Source: Dictyostelium discoideum (Eukaryota). Taken from it: DNA of 64,000 nucleotides. Under the pieces are notes generated by a model, which saw only the letters and a program-made list of their open reading frames with translations, had not been told where the DNA came from and made no database searches. The position numbers and the translations under genes are program-made. Where the stretch lies: contig CM000152.2 of NCBI GenBank assembly GCA_000004695.1, positions 4,704,001 to 4,768,000 on the forward strand. The letters run 5' to 3'. Positions 5,076 through 12,442 of this stretch are shown here, piece by piece; positions within the stretch are counted from its first letter, which is position 1; every line of letters begins with the position of its first letter.

Positions 5076-7232
5076 ATGACAATAACAAGTCCAGTAATTA
5101 AAACGCCACCATTAAATTCAGAGATTAGACTTGAATCAAATTTAACAGTTGAATCAGGTGATATTGAAATTAATGAAAAAGATATTGTAAATGCATCGGA
5201 AGTAATAGTAATTTTAGATGCAGGATCGCAATATAGTAAAGTGATTGATAGAAGAGTTAGAGAATTAAATGTTGCATCAGAAATTCATCCATTAAATATA
5301 GATTTATTAGAATTAATTAAGATTAAATCAAAATCAGGATCAACTATTAAAGGTATAATTATCTCTGGTGGTCCAGAGAGTGTCTATGGTGAGAATGCAC
5401 CAAAATTCGATAAATCATTATTCTCTGAGAAATTAAATTTACCAATATTTGGTATTTGTTATGGTATGCAATTAATGAATTATATATTTGGTGGAAAGGT
5501 TGAAAGTAATTCACAACGTGAAGATGGTGTGCACAATATTGAGATTTTAAAAGATGAAAATCAACAACTTGTTTCAAAACTATTTAAAAATTTAAATCAA
5601 ACCGAGCAAGTTTTATTAACACATGGTGATAGTGTTACAAAGATTGCAGATGGATTTAAAATCATTTGTAAATCAGACGATGGTATTGTATCAGGTATTG
5701 AGAATGAAAGATTGGGCTATTATGGCGTGCAATTCCATCCAGAGGTTGATTTAACTACCAACGGTAAGAAAATGTTTTCAAACTTTTTAATTGACATTTG
5801 TGGTTGTAGTGCAAATTATACATTGGATGATCGTGAACAACAAGCAATCACCTATATCAAATCTATAGTTTCAAATAAAAAAGTATTGGTTTTAGTATCG
5901 GGTGGTGTAGATTCAACAGTTTGTGCAGCATTAATTTCAAAAGCAATTGGTCCTGAAAATGTTATTGCATTACATATTGATAATGGTTTCATGAGAAAAG
6001 ATGAGAGTTTAAATGTTGAAAAGGCATTATCAGTATTGGGTCTACATTTGATTGTTGTTGACGCATCTCAAACATTTTATAATTCAACCACCACTATCAA
6101 AGGCCATTTAACCTCATCGTTGAAAGAAACAATATCACCAGAAGAAAGAAGAAAAATCATTGGTGATACTTTTATGAGAGTTGCAGAGAATGAAGTTAAG
6201 AAATTAGGTTTACAACCAGAGGATGTTTATTTAGCCCAGGGTACACTTCGTCCAGATTTAATTGAATCTTCAAGTAAAACAGTTAGTGGTGTTGCCGATG
6301 TTATTAAAACTCATCATAATGATACAGAATTGGTTAGAATCCTTAGAGATTCAGGTAGAGTAGTTGAGCCATTAAAAGATTATCATAAAGATGAAGTTAG
6401 AGAATTAGGTAAATCATTAGGTCTTTCAGATTCTTTGGTATGGCGTCAACCTTTCCCTGGCCCAGGTTTAGCAATTCGTATCATTTGTGCTGATGAACCT
6501 TATCTAGTGAATTATGATTTTACAAATAATGTCGTGCAATATTTAGTAACCGGTGAAGCTTCCTCAGAGTTGGAATCAGAAGTTAAAATTAAAATTGATA
6601 AACAATTAACAGAGATGAAATGTAAACGTCAAGATAAAATTACAATTAAACCAGTTTTATTACCAATTCAAACTGTTGGTGTTCAAGGTGATGGTAGAAC
6701 TTATTCTTATTTATTAGGTCTTTATAGTTCAGAGAATTCAACAATCGACCAAATTCCTTGGTCTTATATTTTCAATTTAGCTAGAACTATACCAAAGATT
6801 TGTCATAATATAAATAGAGTGGTTTTCATTTTCTCTCAAAATGCTACTAAACATACAAATATTAAAGTTTCAAATGAACCAGTTAAACATATCACACCAA
6901 CTCGTTTAACTCCTGATGTTATTAAACAACTTCAACATGCTGATTCAATAGTTTCAGAACAACTCTATAAATATAATTTAATTAAATCACTATCCCAAGT
7001 TCCCGTTGTATCATTACCAATAGATTTCGGTGTTACAGGTAATAGATCAATCGCAATTCGTACTTTTATTACAAATGATTTCATGACTGGTGTTCCTGCG
7101 ATTCCTGGTAAAAATATTAGTTTCGATTGTTTACAAGAAATTACAAATAATATTTTAACTTCTGTAAATGGTATTTCAAAAGTTTTATTTGATTGTACTT
7201 CAAAACCACCTGGTACTACTGAATTCTTATAA
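5076..7232 (+). CDS. guaA: GMP synthase (glutamine-hydrolysing), eukaryotic ~718 aa form
   Basis: Class-I glutamine amidotransferase domain (ICYGMQL, catalytic Cys; HPE). ATP pyrophosphatase P-loop SGGVDS. C-terminal GMP synthase dimerisation region. Confidence 0.93.
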   Translation: MTITSPVIKTPPLNSEIRLESNLTVESGDIEINEKDIVNASEVIVILDAGSQYSKVIDRRVRELNVASEIHPLNIDLLELIKIKSKSGSTIKGIIISGGPESVYGENAPKFDKSLFSEKLNLPIFGICYGMQLMNYIFGGKVESNSQREDGVHNIEILKDENQQLVSKLFKNLNQTEQVLLTHGDSVTKIADGFKIICKSDDGIVSGIENERLGYYGVQFHPEVDLTTNGKKMFSNFLIDICGCSANYTLDDREQQAITYIKSIVSNKKVLVLVSGGVDSTVCAALISKAIGPENVIALHIDNGFMRKDESLNVEKALSVLGLHLIVVDASQTFYNSTTTIKGHLTSSLKETISPEERRKIIGDTFMRVAENEVKKLGLQPEDVYLAQGTLRPDLIESSSKTVSGVADVIKTHHNDTELVRILRDSGRVVEPLKDYHKDEVRELGKSLGLSDSLVWRQPFPGPGLAIRIICADEPYLVNYDFTNNVVQYLVTGEASSELESEVKIKIDKQLTEMKCKRQDKITIKPVLLPIQTVGVQGDGRTYSYLLGLYSSENSTIDQIPWSYIFNLARTIPKICHNINRVVFIFSQNATKHTNIKVSNEPVKHITPTRLTPDVIKQLQHADSIVSEQLYKYNLIKSLSQVPVVSLPIDFGVTGNRSIAIRTFITNDFMTGVPAIPGKNISFDCLQEITNNILTSVNGISKVLFDCTSKPPGTTEFL

Positions 7233-7302
7233 AAAAAAAATAAAAAAATAAAAAAATAAGTAAAAAAAAAAAGAAATATAATTTTTGGGTTTATAATTTT
7301 GT

Positions 7303-8238
7303 TTTATTTATAATAATTTAATGAAATCAAATGTTTGAACATCATTTGTGTTTGTGATAGATTTGAAAGTGATGACAATGTTGCCAGATTCGAATGACCA
7401 TGACCAATATCCACTCAAGTTTGCATCATGTTTGATTACAATTGTATGATTTGAAGTTGCTTCTTGAACTGCTTCTAAAATCATTTCATCTGAACAACGT
7501 TTTGCAAGATTTGCAGCAACTTTTTCAACAATACCTGCAAAGATATGACCGAAACTATTCTTTAAATCATCAGCAACTTTTGGATAAACTTCTTGTAATG
7601 ATGTTTCATCAATTGACCAATCAGCTGATGATTTTAATGCTTTTTTGACAGCTGCTAAATTATCTTTCATTTTTTGTTCATTTGTTTTAATATTTAAACG
7701 AGTGCTTAAAGTGTAAACACCTTGAGTTGGAATAATTGTTTCTAATTTAAAAGTATTTACATCATTTGTGTTGCAAATCTTTGGACGGAATAAAATTTGA
7801 CAATCACCATTTTCAAATTGGAATTTCCAGTATGATGATAATTTTTCATCAGCACAAATAAAAACAAATTTCTTATTTGGAACAGCTGCTAAAAATGCTT
7901 CTTTAATTAATGGATCGGCTCCGACTTTAGCCATGTTTTTAGCAAGATTACCAACTACATCTTTATAAAAGATACTACCACAACTATTTGTAACCCAAGA
8001 GTCATTACATTTTGTAATAATATCTTCAAAATCAAATTCAATAGCAAAAGCTTCACCTAATGATTTTTCAATTGCAGCTAAATTTGTTTTTAAAGATTCT
8101 TCATTATCTTTTAATGATTTTCTAAAAATTTAAAAAAAGTTTGAATAAATATTTTAAATATTAAATATTAAATATCTTTTTTTTTTTTTAATTTTATTTT
8201 TAATAAATACCTTGAAGTTAAAGCGAGAGGCATTTTGG
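7303..8238. repeat. Segmental duplicate unit A (~935 bp); pairs with 9353..10268, same orientation, ~1.1 kb spacer
   Basis: Direct sequence comparison. Confidence 0.9.
7308..8233 (-). CDS. Copy 1 of a tandemly duplicated gene. Exon 1 is 8233..8211 (MPLALTS…), intron 8210..8122 (GTATTT…ttttAG), exon 2 is 8121..7308. The ~279 aa protein is built from two internally repeated ~140 aa units, each with a helical half then a beta-rich half (compare KFVFICADEKLSSYWKFQFENGDCQILF with HTIVIKHDANLSGYWSWSFESGNIVITF). Function unknown.
   Basis: ORF track plus an upstream in-frame exon and spliced 5' mini-exon recovered by hand; internal repeat is visible by eye. Confidence 0.7.
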
Positions 8239-9352
8239 GTTAATAGTTTATTTTTTTATTTATTTATTTTTTTTAAATAAGAGTTTATTATTTTTTAATG
8301 TTTGATCGAATGATTTTTAAAAAAAAAACATAGTGCTTTTATATTAAAAAAAATGAAATGGATCAGGGAAATTAGAAAAAAAAAAGATTTGAAAAAACAG
8401 AAACAATTTGAAATGGAAAATAATCAAAAAATAAAATATCTTTTGGGATATTTTTTTTTTTTTTTCTAATTTTTTTTTAGTTTTTTTTTTTTTTTTTTAA
8501 TCTTTTAATTGATTAAAAAGAAAAAAAAAAAAAAAATAAAAGAATTAAATTAGTTTTTTTTTTTTTTTAAATGATATTAATAATTATTTAAATTAAATTG
8601 ATTAGAAAGAAAAAATTAAAGATATATTTAATATCAATAAAAAAGGTGAAATAAAATATAATTTGAAATTTAATTTTTTTTTATTTTTGTATTTACAATA
8701 GCTTATTTTAAAGTTTTTTGAATAAGGACGAAATTTATGAATTATCCATTTTAAATTCCAACACGAGTAAAGGTTTCCACCAAAGTATGTGTATATATCT
8801 TTACTTCAGATAATAAGGAAACATTATTATTTAATTGAGATGTTCCAGTAATTATAGTTCCTGATATATAATTGGTTTGTGAAACATTTTTGATATTGTT
8901 AATTGAATTAAATGATTCTATTATTTTTTAAAATTTTTTTTTTTTTAAATTAGTTTATAATTTAATATTATTAAATCTTTATTTTTCTTTAATTTTTTTT
9001 TTTTTTTTTAATTAAAACTTACTAAATAACATTTTATAATTTTTTATAATTTAAACTAAAATAGTACTTTTATTGTAATGAATTAGTTTGAAAATAATTT
9101 TTCATTTTATAGTTTTTTTTTTTAAGTACTAAGTAATTTTAATTTTTTTAAAATTTCCTTAAAAAATTATCTATTATAAATTATGAATCTGTTATCATTT
9201 TTATTTTTAAAATATTGTCAAAAAACCACAACTCATCTTTTAATAATTTTTAAGTGTTAAAAGATTTTAAAAAATTTAAAAAAGTTGAAAATAAAAATAT
9301 TTTTGTATTTTGTGGTAAATGTGATAATTTTAAAAAATTAATTTTTACAAAT

Positions 9353-10268
9353 TTTATTTATAATAATTTAATGAAATCAAATGTTTGAACATCATTTGTG
9401 TTTGTGATAGATTTGAAAGTGATGACAATGTTGCCAGATTCGAATGACCATGACCAATATCCACTCAAGTTTGCATCATGTTTGATTACAATTGTATGAT
9501 TTGAAGTTGCTTCTTGAACTGCTTCTAAAATCATTTCATCTGAACAACGTTTGGTAAGATTTGCAGCAACTTTTTCAACAATACCTGCAAATATATGACC
9601 GAAACTATTCTTTAAATCATCAGCAACTTTTGGATAAACTTCTTGTAATGATGTTTCATCAATTGACCAATCAGCTGATGATTTTAATGCCTTTTTAACA
9701 GCTGCTAAATTATCTTTCATTTTTTGTTCATTTGTTTTAATATTTAAACGAGTGCTTAAAGTGTAAACACCTTGAGTTGGAATAATTGTTTCTAATTTAA
9801 AAGTATTTACATCGTTTGTGTTGCAAATCTTTGGACGGAATAAAATTTGACAATCACCATTTTCAAATTGGAATTTCCAGTATGATGATAATTTTTCATC
9901 AGCACAAATAAAAACAAATTTCTTATTTGGAACAGCTGCTAAAAATGCTTCTTTAATTAATGGATCGGCTCCGACTTTAGCCATGTTTTTAGTAAGATTA
10001 CCAACTACATCTTTATAAAAGATACTACCACAACTATTTGTAACCCAGGAGTCATTACATTTTGTAATAATATCTTCAAAATCAAATTCAATAGCAAAAG
10101 CTTCACCTAATGATTTTTCAATTGCAGCTAAATTTGTTTTTAAAGATTCTTCATTATCTTTTAATGATTTTCTAAAAATTTAAATAAATATAATTAGTTA
10201 CAATTTATTTTAATAAATTAAAAATAAAAATAATAATTACCTTGAAGTTAAAGCGAGAGGCATTTTGG
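9353..10268. repeat. Segmental duplicate unit B
   Basis: Direct sequence comparison. Confidence 0.9.
9358..10263 (-). CDS. Copy 2 of the same gene. Exon 1 is 10263..10241, intron 10240..10172, exon 2 is 10171..9358. The coding sequence differs from copy 1 by ~7 substitutions, of which 2 are non-synonymous (both Ala to Thr).
   Basis: Exons align almost base for base with 7308..8233; the intron and flanks are unrelated. Confidence 0.7.
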
Positions 10269-10927
10269 ATTAATTTTGATTATTATTATTAATATTATTA
10301 TTAATTTAAATATGTTTTTTGAATTTATTGAATGATTTGGAAAAAAAAAAAAAGAAATTTAATTTATACAAAAAAAAAAGAAAATAATTAAGATTATTAT
10401 TTAAAAAAAAAAAGAAGAAAATAAAAAAATAAATAAAAAACAAACAATTAAAAAACTTTTTAGAAATGATTTGGAAAGGAGGATTTTTAAGATATTTTCA
10501 AAAAAAAAAAAAATAAAAAAAAAAAATGAAAAGAGATATTTTTAATAATTGAACGATTTTTACAATAAAGAAAGGTAAAGTTTGTGCGCTTTGAAATTTA
10601 AAATGGATTTCTAATTGGAATTAAAGAAGAAAAAAACAATATAACCAGGTAATTGGTCACGATCAGTCATAAAAAAAAGAAAATAATAATCTGTTTATCC
10701 TTTTTTTTTTTTTTTAGTATTTTTTTTTCATAAATTTTGATTTTTTTTTTTTTTGGGTTTTTATCAATATTATTTAAAAAATAAAAATAAAAATAAAAAA
10801 AAAATTTGGAGATTTGTTTTTTTAAAAATGAATTAAAAAAAACTGAAAGAAACGTTTCGTTTTTACCTTATTTTCGTGAAAAAAAAAAAAAAAAAAATAT
10901 ATTTGCATGTGAAAAAAAATAAATAAA

Positions 10928-12442
10928 ATGGATGATCAAGATATATTTTCAAAAAGAGGATCATATAGACAAGAAATAATTAAAAATGAAAATGATAAAA
11001 AGTATTTTAATAAAGTAACTAATAATATTAATGAAAATGAAAATGAAAATGAAGAAAAAATTAAAAGATTTAAACAAGATAATAAAATTAAAACCAATGA
11101 AATGAGAAAAATACATATGAATGATTTAAATGAATATTATCAAAAGTATAAAGAAGAGATCGATTTAAAATTAAAGATAAATAAAAAGAAATTATCAGTT
11201 GCAATGGTTTTTGGATATGACGGTACTGGTTATTATGGTTTAGGTTATCAAGTTGATATTAAATATCCATCAATTGAAAATTTAATTGAAAAAGTTTTAT
11301 TTAGATGTGGTCATATTTTACCAAGTAATGTTGGTGAATTAAAAAGATTGAAATGGAGTCACTCAAGTAGAACTGATAAAGGTGTTCATTCATTAGCAAC
11401 TGTAATATCCTGTTTCTTAGTTGTTGATGATAATACTTTTAAAAATGATATCAATCAAACATTCATTGATACTATAAATAATTATTTACCATCATCCATT
11501 AGATTATTCAGCGCATGTAAAGTTTCACGTAGTTTTCAAGCTAGAAAAAAAGGAATTGAAAGATCTTATAATTATATGGTACCATCAGAATATTTAAATA
11601 ATATTAAAATTGATGAAATGAATAAAATTTTACAAAATTTTATTGGTATAAATAGTTATCATAATTTTACAAGTAAAAGAAATACTTATTTAAGTAATAA
11701 TAATAATAAAAATCATGAAAAAGATGAAAAAGATGAAGAAGATGGAGATGAAGAAGAAGAAGAGGATGATGAAGTTGAAGTTGAAAATAGTAATAATAAT
11801 AATAGTAATTATAGATTAAATGAAAAATTATTATTTAGAAATAATTCAACAAATATTAGAAATATTAAATCATTTTATGTTGAAAATGAAATAATTGAAA
11901 TTAAAGGTAAAGGTTGGTATAAATTTGTAATTATTGGTGAATCATTTATTTTATATCAAATTAGAAGAATGGTGGGATTCTTTTTATCGATTGTTAAAGG
12001 TTATTCAACAGTTGAGGCATTAGAGTTATCATTGAAATCACCATTTTCAATTTGTGTACCAACAGCACCACCATTTCCATTATATTTATTTAATGTTAAA
12101 TTTGACCCAAATTCAAATGTTGAAAAATTATTTTCAAATCCAGAACCAATCCAATTTAAACAATTCAATTTTTTACAATCACAATTAATACCACGTTTTA
12201 ATGAGATTGAATTTCAAACTAATCAATTTAAAGAATTTTTCAATTATTTAGAAAATAGTCATAATTTTAATCTAGATGATATTGATCAATTAAGAATTTT
12301 AAATCAACAATATCAAACTGAAAAAGAAGAAAGAAAAAAACAAAATGAGTTATTATTATTAAAAGAAAAACAAGAAACAATTGTTGAAATTGGAAACGAG
12401 AGAATAGAAAAATTAAAAAAAAAAGAAATAAAAATTAACTAA
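10928..12442 (+). CDS. pus1: tRNA pseudouridine synthase, TruA/Pus1 type, with N- and C-terminal low-complexity extensions
   Basis: YDGTGYYGLGYQ block; catalytic-Asp motif RTDKGVHS; RSYNYMVP (compare Pus1 ARTYCYLLP). Confidence 0.85.
   Translation: MDDQDIFSKRGSYRQEIIKNENDKKYFNKVTNNINENENENEEKIKRFKQDNKIKTNEMRKIHMNDLNEYYQKYKEEIDLKLKINKKKLSVAMVFGYDGTGYYGLGYQVDIKYPSIENLIEKVLFRCGHILPSNVGELKRLKWSHSSRTDKGVHSLATVISCFLVVDDNTFKNDINQTFIDTINNYLPSSIRLFSACKVSRSFQARKKGIERSYNYMVPSEYLNNIKIDEMNKILQNFIGINSYHNFTSKRNTYLSNNNNKNHEKDEKDEEDGDEEEEEDDEVEVENSNNNNSNYRLNEKLLFRNNSTNIRNIKSFYVENEIIEIKGKGWYKFVIIGESFILYQIRRMVGFFLSIVKGYSTVEALELSLKSPFSICVPTAPPFPLYLFNVKFDPNSNVEKLFSNPEPIQFKQFNFLQSQLIPRFNEIEFQTNQFKEFFNYLENSHNFNLDDIDQLRILNQQYQTEKEERKKQNELLLLKEKQETIVEIGNERIEKLKKKEIKIN

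Follow-up and report, generated by a model that had tools for sequence, protein, structure and literature searches.

Two neighbouring genes on chromosome 3 of Dictyostelium discoideum, here called A and B, carry nearly identical coding sequences around introns that are no more alike than shuffled sequence. Both genes lie in the window, the 64-kb stretch of DNA that was analysed (base composition 21% GC). We propose that the pair is very probably an instance of concerted evolution, in which an old tandem duplicate has been homogenised by recurrent local gene conversion over a tract that is essentially exon 2. The coding sequences of the two copies are more alike within a genome than between genomes, the duplication is older than the split between D. 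discoideum and D. citrinum, and the homogenised block ends sharply at both sides.

Extent of the identity and age of the duplication

Gene A, proximal to the GMP synthase gene, occupies 7308..8233 on the minus strand, with exon 1 at 8233..8211, an intron of 89 nucleotides (nt) at 8210..8122 and exon 2, including the stop codon, at 8121..7308. Gene B, the distal copy, occupies 9358..10263 on the same strand, with exon 1 at 10263..10241, an intron of 69 nt at 10240..10172 and exon 2 at 10171..9358. Based on the gene models and their translations, each has a coding sequence (CDS) of 837 nt and encodes an uncharacterised protein of 278 amino acids (aa). The genes are direct repeats, 2,050 bp apart start to start, and no further copy was found elsewhere in the 64-kb window. 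The translation of gene B equals DDB_G0281617 of D. discoideum AX4 letter for letter. A gene identical to A is annotated in an independent assembly (L001) at 8031-8956, and this assembly agrees with the window over 4 kb across both copies without a single difference, so the 8 differences between A and B described below are not assembly noise.

Between the two CDSs there are 8 nucleotide differences, which fall in 7 codons. Six of these differences are synonymous and two are non-synonymous (A68T and A214T), giving a synonymous divergence (Ks) of 0.036 and a non-synonymous divergence (Ka) of 0.003 by NG86. The gene models and this alignment bear out the original prediction, made from the window alone, of a tandem two-exon pair with near-identical exons and introns of 89 and 69 nt; its two non-synonymous changes stand, while its total of about 7 coding differences has to be corrected to 8 nucleotides. 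In a local alignment, the homogenised block of A, the putative conversion tract, runs from 7302 to 8138 and pairs with 9352..10188 in B over 837 ungapped nucleotides with 9 mismatches. It spans exon 2, runs 6 nt into the 3' untranslated region (UTR) past the stop and takes in 17 nt at the 3' end of the intron; its edges are sharp. A second, short block of identity (8211..8244, equivalent to 10241..10274; 34 nt with 1 mismatch) takes in exon 1 together with 11 nt of 5' UTR.

Outside these blocks the similarity is lost. The intron cores of A and B are 51% identical, compared to 55 +/- 3% for shuffled sequences, and the z-scores of their local alignments are below zero. The check proposed in the original prediction, exon Ks against intron divergence, therefore gives a Ks of 0.036 for exons and introns at the shuffle level, and its claim of unrelated introns is upheld. 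It had also called the flanks unrelated, which holds for the 3' flanks (z 1.8) and does not hold for the upstream regions, which retain a common promoter core and have only this core in common. The introns and flanks are thus not as alike as the exons, as they would be in a recent segmental duplication.

The window and L001 (both D. discoideum) were compared with L004 (GCA_054859385.1, a divergent genome labelled D. discoideum), L002 (D. citrinum) and L003 (D. dimigraforme), the GMP synthase gene serving as the syntenic anchor and as the single-copy control for the synonymous rate. The window, L001 and L004 share the order pseudouridine synthase-B-spacer-A-GMP synthase, and D. citrinum has the order B-spacer-A-GMP synthase. 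All three syntenic genomes have two copies at the locus; the copy number that the original prediction wanted checked in other dictyostelids is accordingly two at the syntenic position in both L004 and D. citrinum. An alignment of D. discoideum with D. citrinum extends over the full 1.1-kb spacer between the copies and over the conserved gene of 58 or 59 aa within it. Because the same pair with an alignable spacer stands beside GMP synthase in L004 and in D. citrinum, the duplication is older than the separation of either from the window lineage.

The non-coding DNA groups by position. Across species, the z-scores of upstream flanks are 33 and 15 when the positions match and 1-8 when they do not. 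Positional grouping of flanks and spacer is seen against L004 and against D. citrinum alike. For the introns it holds for the window against L004, where local alignments give z = 7-18 at the same position and z below zero across positions. The intron of A (8122..8210, minus strand) is orthologous to the 84-nt proximal intron of L004, with a core identity of 0.82, and the intron of B (10172..10240, minus strand) to the 69-nt distal intron, with a core identity of 0.96 and a local alignment z of 17.7; neither identity was reached by any of 300 shuffles.

The coding sites group by genome without exception. Informative sites supporting grouping by genome and by position number 51:0 for D. discoideum against D. 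citrinum, 47:0 for L004 against D. citrinum and 17:0 for the window against L004. The 51 substitutions, mostly synonymous, are present in both copies of one species and in neither copy of the other. Polarising the 17 sites fixed between the window and L004 by reference to D. citrinum assigns 8 derived states to the window lineage and 7 to that of L004, so that in each of the two lineages new substitutions have reached both copies since the lineages parted. Taken with the orthologous pair and spacer, these site patterns support the conversion confined to coding sequence that the original prediction offered as one of two explanations.

Synonymous rates lead to the same reading. Ks between paralogs is 0.036, 0.049 and 0.056 in the three syntenic genomes, and 0.108 for two D. 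dimigraforme copies. Between genomes, Ks of the pair is 0.14-0.16 for the window against L004 and 0.36-0.41 against D. citrinum, and proximal-proximal comparisons give the same values as proximal-distal ones. GMP synthase has Ks of 0.120 (window against L004) and 0.436 (window against D. citrinum), matching the between-genome values of the pair, so the synonymous sites of the pair are not constrained. L004 may represent a cryptic species, since its divergence from the window seems large for one species.

The homogenisation does not extend to DDB_G0271254, an unlinked paralog on chromosome 2. This gene differs from the pair by Ks of 0.61-0.65, with 96 variable positions and no tract in common, and its orthologues in other strains retain locus-specific residues. 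Conversion is therefore local. Conversion is known to depend on the distance between copies, and the chromosome 2 result fits this. It should be mentioned that codon 214 of A is GCA, as in the chromosome 2 paralog. A micro-conversion from chromosome 2 was considered for this codon and rejected, since the neighbouring position 639 is different and 96 further positions are unshared.

Proposed route and competing explanations

The pattern, the age of the duplication and the boundaries of the blocks are shown by these data; the molecular route and the role of heterology are best described in conditional terms. An old tandem duplication produced two direct-repeat copies, with the spacer gene DDB_G0281615 between them, before D. 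discoideum and D. citrinum separated. Later, each lineage would on its own, and more than once, have homogenised the coding sequences through non-reciprocal conversion from one linked copy to the other, probably without crossover during break repair. As vegetative Dictyostelium is haploid, repair of a break templated by the paralog on the same chromatid or on the sister chromatid is the most likely source of such events. The tract would be bounded to exon 2 as the sole long uninterrupted homology and would overrun it by a few bases, into the intron on one side and the 3' UTR on the other. At the 3' end of the introns, the final 8-13 nt are specific to each genome and common to both of its paralogs (window, TTTAAATTTTTAG; D. 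citrinum, AATTATAG; D. dimigraforme, TTTTATTATAG), which suggests that tracts enter the intron by a few bases and then stop. The introns, promoters and 3' flanks, which have 5-14% GC and differ by indels, may have diverged past what a heteroduplex tolerates, so that heterology would act as the barrier to the tract. Purifying selection on the protein (Ka/Ks ~0.03-0.12) would help exon 2 to stay similar enough for further conversion, and because exon 2 is kept convertible in this manner, the homogenised state could be self-sustaining.

The features by which gene conversion is recognised occur together here: greater similarity within than between genomes, an older duplication, a normal synonymous rate, and a discrete tract with a stable copy number. 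Several points weigh on the other side. The conversion events are all deduced from a comparison of four genomes. At the distance of D. citrinum the introns are near random, with 13 of 300 shuffles reaching the distal value and no significance for the proximal intron; because these introns are too diverged, the cross-species argument rests on the flanks and the spacer. The 23 nt of exon 1 are near-invariant in all species and cannot reveal whether exon 1 was converted. The 8 differences between A and B are scattered over CDS positions 147-642 and outline no visible recent tract. Finally, unequal crossing-over followed by restoration of the copy number is formally conceivable.

This last route, cycles of unequal crossing-over with loss to one copy and re-duplication in place of conversion, is the best of the competing explanations and is nonetheless unlikely. 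Copies repeated in direct orientation at a distance of 2 kb can undergo unequal sister-chromatid exchange, and the copy number of the family does vary, from 1 in Acytostelium to at least 6 listed proteins in D. dimigraforme. However, every round of this kind would remove the spacer, DDB_G0281615 included, together with one set of flanks, and would make the paralogous flanks and introns identical. What is found instead, in three genomes, is a spacer, two distinct introns and two distinct promoters that have stayed at their orthologous positions.

That the whole segment was duplicated recently, its introns and flanks then being quickly scrambled by slippage and indels in AT-rich DNA, is less probable still and can be set aside with little hesitation. 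Such an event would account for the low paralog Ks of 0.036, and the non-coding DNA is indeed low in GC, of low complexity and prone to indels. Synteny refutes it: the pair, the spacer and the spacer gene are orthologous in D. citrinum at Ks ~0.4, and the 17:0 and 51:0 patterns require homogenisation after speciation. Moreover, the orthologous introns of the window and L004 are 82-96% identical at Ks 0.12-0.15, whereas the paralogous introns are random at Ks 0.036. As orthologous introns outlast a greater Ks than the paralogs show, non-coding decay is too slow for this explanation, and the original prediction was right that the pair does not look like a recent whole-segment duplication. Its second option, that purifying selection alone has kept an old duplicate near-identical, codons included and with no exchange, is equally hard to credit: it could draw on the strong constraint on the protein (Ka/Ks ~0.03-0.05 between genomes; 77% identity to the D. 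purpureum protein and 40% to that of Acytostelium) and on a slightly raised use of C-ending codons (0.22 in the pair vs 0.07-0.16 in neighbouring genes), but it is refuted by the contrast between paralog Ks of 0.036-0.056 and a between-genome Ks of 0.36-0.41 that is normal next to GMP synthase at 0.44, and selection cannot yield 51 species-specific substitutions common to both copies.

Gene conversion between the linked copies, confined essentially to exon 2, can be compared with several known systems. Interlocus conversion confined to coding sequence is a textbook phenomenon, as in primate gamma-globin genes, the Drosophila hsp70 and amylase pairs, and the ribosomal-protein and TEF paralogs of yeast. 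Conversion of paralogs in their coding regions is reportedly the subject of Gao & Innan 2004, Pyne et al. 2005 and Sugino & Innan 2006. Like the globin, hsp70, amylase and yeast paralogs, A and B are closer within a genome than orthologs are between genomes and have homogenised synonymous sites; the tract stops at the borders between coding and non-coding sequence, the copies are closely linked, and purifying selection is strong. Unlike them, the pair resides in a haploid, extremely AT-rich social amoeba, has an unrelated small gene in its spacer, and encodes a product without known function. The arrays of ribosomal DNA, 5S and histone genes, which are homogenised mainly by unequal crossing-over, share the within-genome homogenisation but differ in number and extent, since A and B are only two copies of stable number. 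Because the spacers and introns of the pair are unhomogenised and the copy number is stable, conversion rather than array turnover is the better description.

No publication was found in the literature searched on the A/B pair or on concerted evolution of protein-coding genes in Dictyostelium. The mechanism is well known, and the pair is a new and well-controlled instance of it, which does not overturn current understanding. It provides a clean case of concerted evolution, with controls, in a haploid AT-rich protist, a kind of organism for which few such cases are on record. A low Ks between paralogs in Dictyostelium does not equate to a recent duplication, and age distributions based on Ks are biased for linked pairs. 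With its sharp-edged tract of 837 bp, unconverted introns and an unlinked, unconverted paralog as control, the locus could serve to measure the length and rate of conversion tracts in an amoeba that is amenable to genetics.

The short block at 8211..8244 deserves separate consideration. As exon 1 is near-invariant in all species, only the 5' UTR part of these 34 nt is informative. The last 11 nt of the 5' UTR (8234..8244 and 10264..10274 in the window) are near-identical in A and B, reading ATTAAYCCAAA, and are not alike in L004. The block may therefore be a separate short conversion patch of the window lineage, in which the 5' UTR and exon 1 were converted beside an unconverted intron, although the evidence from so few bases is thin. 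If two separate patches exist, very short tracts (40 bp or less) operate in Dictyostelium.

The encoded protein and its family

The protein of A and B contains an internal duplication of an alpha/beta module of ~140 aa. Residues 5-132 align to the second half with 39% identity (E 4.6e-16), in line with the tandem repeat of such a unit that had been noticed in the translation. An AlphaFold2 model based on a 13-sequence alignment has a mean predicted local distance difference test (pLDDT) of 88.4 and a predicted template modelling score (pTM) of 0.67, and its two halves largely agree in the order of their helices and each contain a three-stranded sheet. The original prediction had suggested an NTF2-like or cystatin-like fold, which finds no backing: no such structure is among the structural and PDB matches listed. 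Searched with the A/B protein, Pfam gave only a match at the level of sub-threshold noise and phmmer against the PDB nothing below E 0.28; Foldseek gave nothing significant, with a best E of 0.38 and no convincing PDB neighbour. Among solved folds, the C-terminal lobe (C-lobe) of HECT ubiquitin ligases comes closest to a single module. Membership in this group was considered and rejected, as the fold match is not significant and no cysteine is among the residues that the family conserves. With 4-10% sequence identity and no N-terminal lobe, the relation is a resemblance.

An exhaustive profile search retrieved 273 cluster representatives at E <= 1e-3. The family counts among its named members a transcript of Physarum polycephalum, a Percolomonas protein whose N-terminus carries a PH domain, and DDB_G0290465, a five-module D. 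discoideum protein of 695 aa that appears in the literature found only as a row in a pull-down table. The module is found in dictyostelids, Physarum, the heterolobosean Percolomonas and unnamed metagenome-derived sequences. Proteins contain from 1 to 5 modules, two being the commonest architecture, and fusion to a PH domain was seen once. Ten other family members have no Pfam domain in common. This strongly conserved, uncharacterised repeat-domain family without a Pfam entry is thereby flagged for attention.

Over 163 non-redundant modules, the conserved residues are L3, L5, R8, G30, D38, G56, D77, K81-E82-A83, Y105, F110, G113 and N125. They are mostly hydrophobic or structural, and no catalytic-looking motif is found among them. 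A hydrophobic N-terminus was not seen on reading the sequence. As a low-confidence guess, the module might be a soluble, non-enzymatic binding or scaffold unit. A broader reading joins these observations to those on the genes: the ~140-aa module would be an uncurated, structurally unassigned eukaryotic domain family, and the pair would be kept identical for a double dose of an abundant cytosolic protein. The window lineage might in addition carry two separate conversion patches (exon 2, and 5' UTR with exon 1) around an unconverted intron. We regard this combination as tentative and somewhat doubtful, and selection on dosage of the product is conjecture.

Each internal repeat contains one of the two non-synonymous differences between A and B, and both turn NLAK into NLTK. 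The codons concerned, 68 and 214, lie at 8032..8030 and 7505..7503 in A and at 10082..10080 and 9555..9553 in B, and the two residues are A, T or S in other species. The Ala/Thr pair may be a coincidence or mark a tolerant surface site. That the two changes fall at equivalent repeat positions was considered and is not established, as the alignment of one half to the other offsets them by four residues.

Putative promoter core and neighbouring genes

The upstream regions of A and B both contain a T-run, followed by (A/T)(A/G)TATAAA and then by AAATCATTC(G/A)A. The putative promoter core of A (8306..8345, minus strand) consists of the TATA-like AATATAAA at 8345..8338 and AAATCATTCGA at 8316..8306, and that of B (10328..10370, minus strand) of TGTATAAA at 10370..10363 and AAATCATTCAA at 10338..10328. 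Eight copies, from D. discoideum, L004, D. citrinum and D. dimigraforme, were aligned over this region. In seven of the eight, a T-run, the TATA-like (A/T)(A/G)TATAAA, a second T-run and AAATCATT(C/G/T)(A/G)A occur in this order, ~70-110 nt before the ATG; copy 1 of D. dimigraforme retains the TATA part only. Position and conservation suggest a promoter role for this core, and the motif after the TATA box could be an initiator or a regulatory site. Because the paralogous upstream regions keep the core in common, the original duplication took in the promoter, and selection has probably preserved just the core of it.

The D. dimigraforme locus that was compared (L003 10001..15140) has two copies 4.2 kb apart in another gene neighbourhood, with GMP synthase absent within 10 kb. 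Both the number of family copies and their placement are fluid, as the at least 6 listed D. dimigraforme proteins also illustrate. All copies from the D. discoideum group have a phase-2 intron after codon 7. The homologue in D. purpureum (L006 10001..10840) is intronless and forms a continuous open reading frame (ORF) of 840 nt that translates to the query protein; intron loss, perhaps by way of a cDNA, or intron gain could account for the difference.

The GMP synthase gene (718 aa) lies at 5076..7232 on the plus strand. It was recognised as an ORF, with the Pfam domains GATase and GMP_synt_C on the same gene in L001, L002 and L004. On the other side of the pair, the pseudouridine synthase gene is located past copy B. 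A scan of 7200..11000 with Rfam returned zero RNA families.

The small gene in the A-B spacer, DDB_G0281615, is unrelated to A and B and encodes 58 aa on the minus strand at 8751..9032. Its exon 1 is at 9032..9023 (ATG at 9032), its intron at 9022..8918 and its exon 2 at 8917..8751 (stop at 8751). This model was built from conservation and matches the named protein exactly. As a part of the ancient spacer, the gene is a marker of how old the arrangement is. A database search with DDB_G0281615 returned the protein itself as the sole match, and the annotations of L001, L002 and L004 have no called gene at its position. The protein is conserved at 54 of 58 positions in L004 and at 42 of 58 in D. 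citrinum, where the gene carries an in-frame indel of 3 nt.

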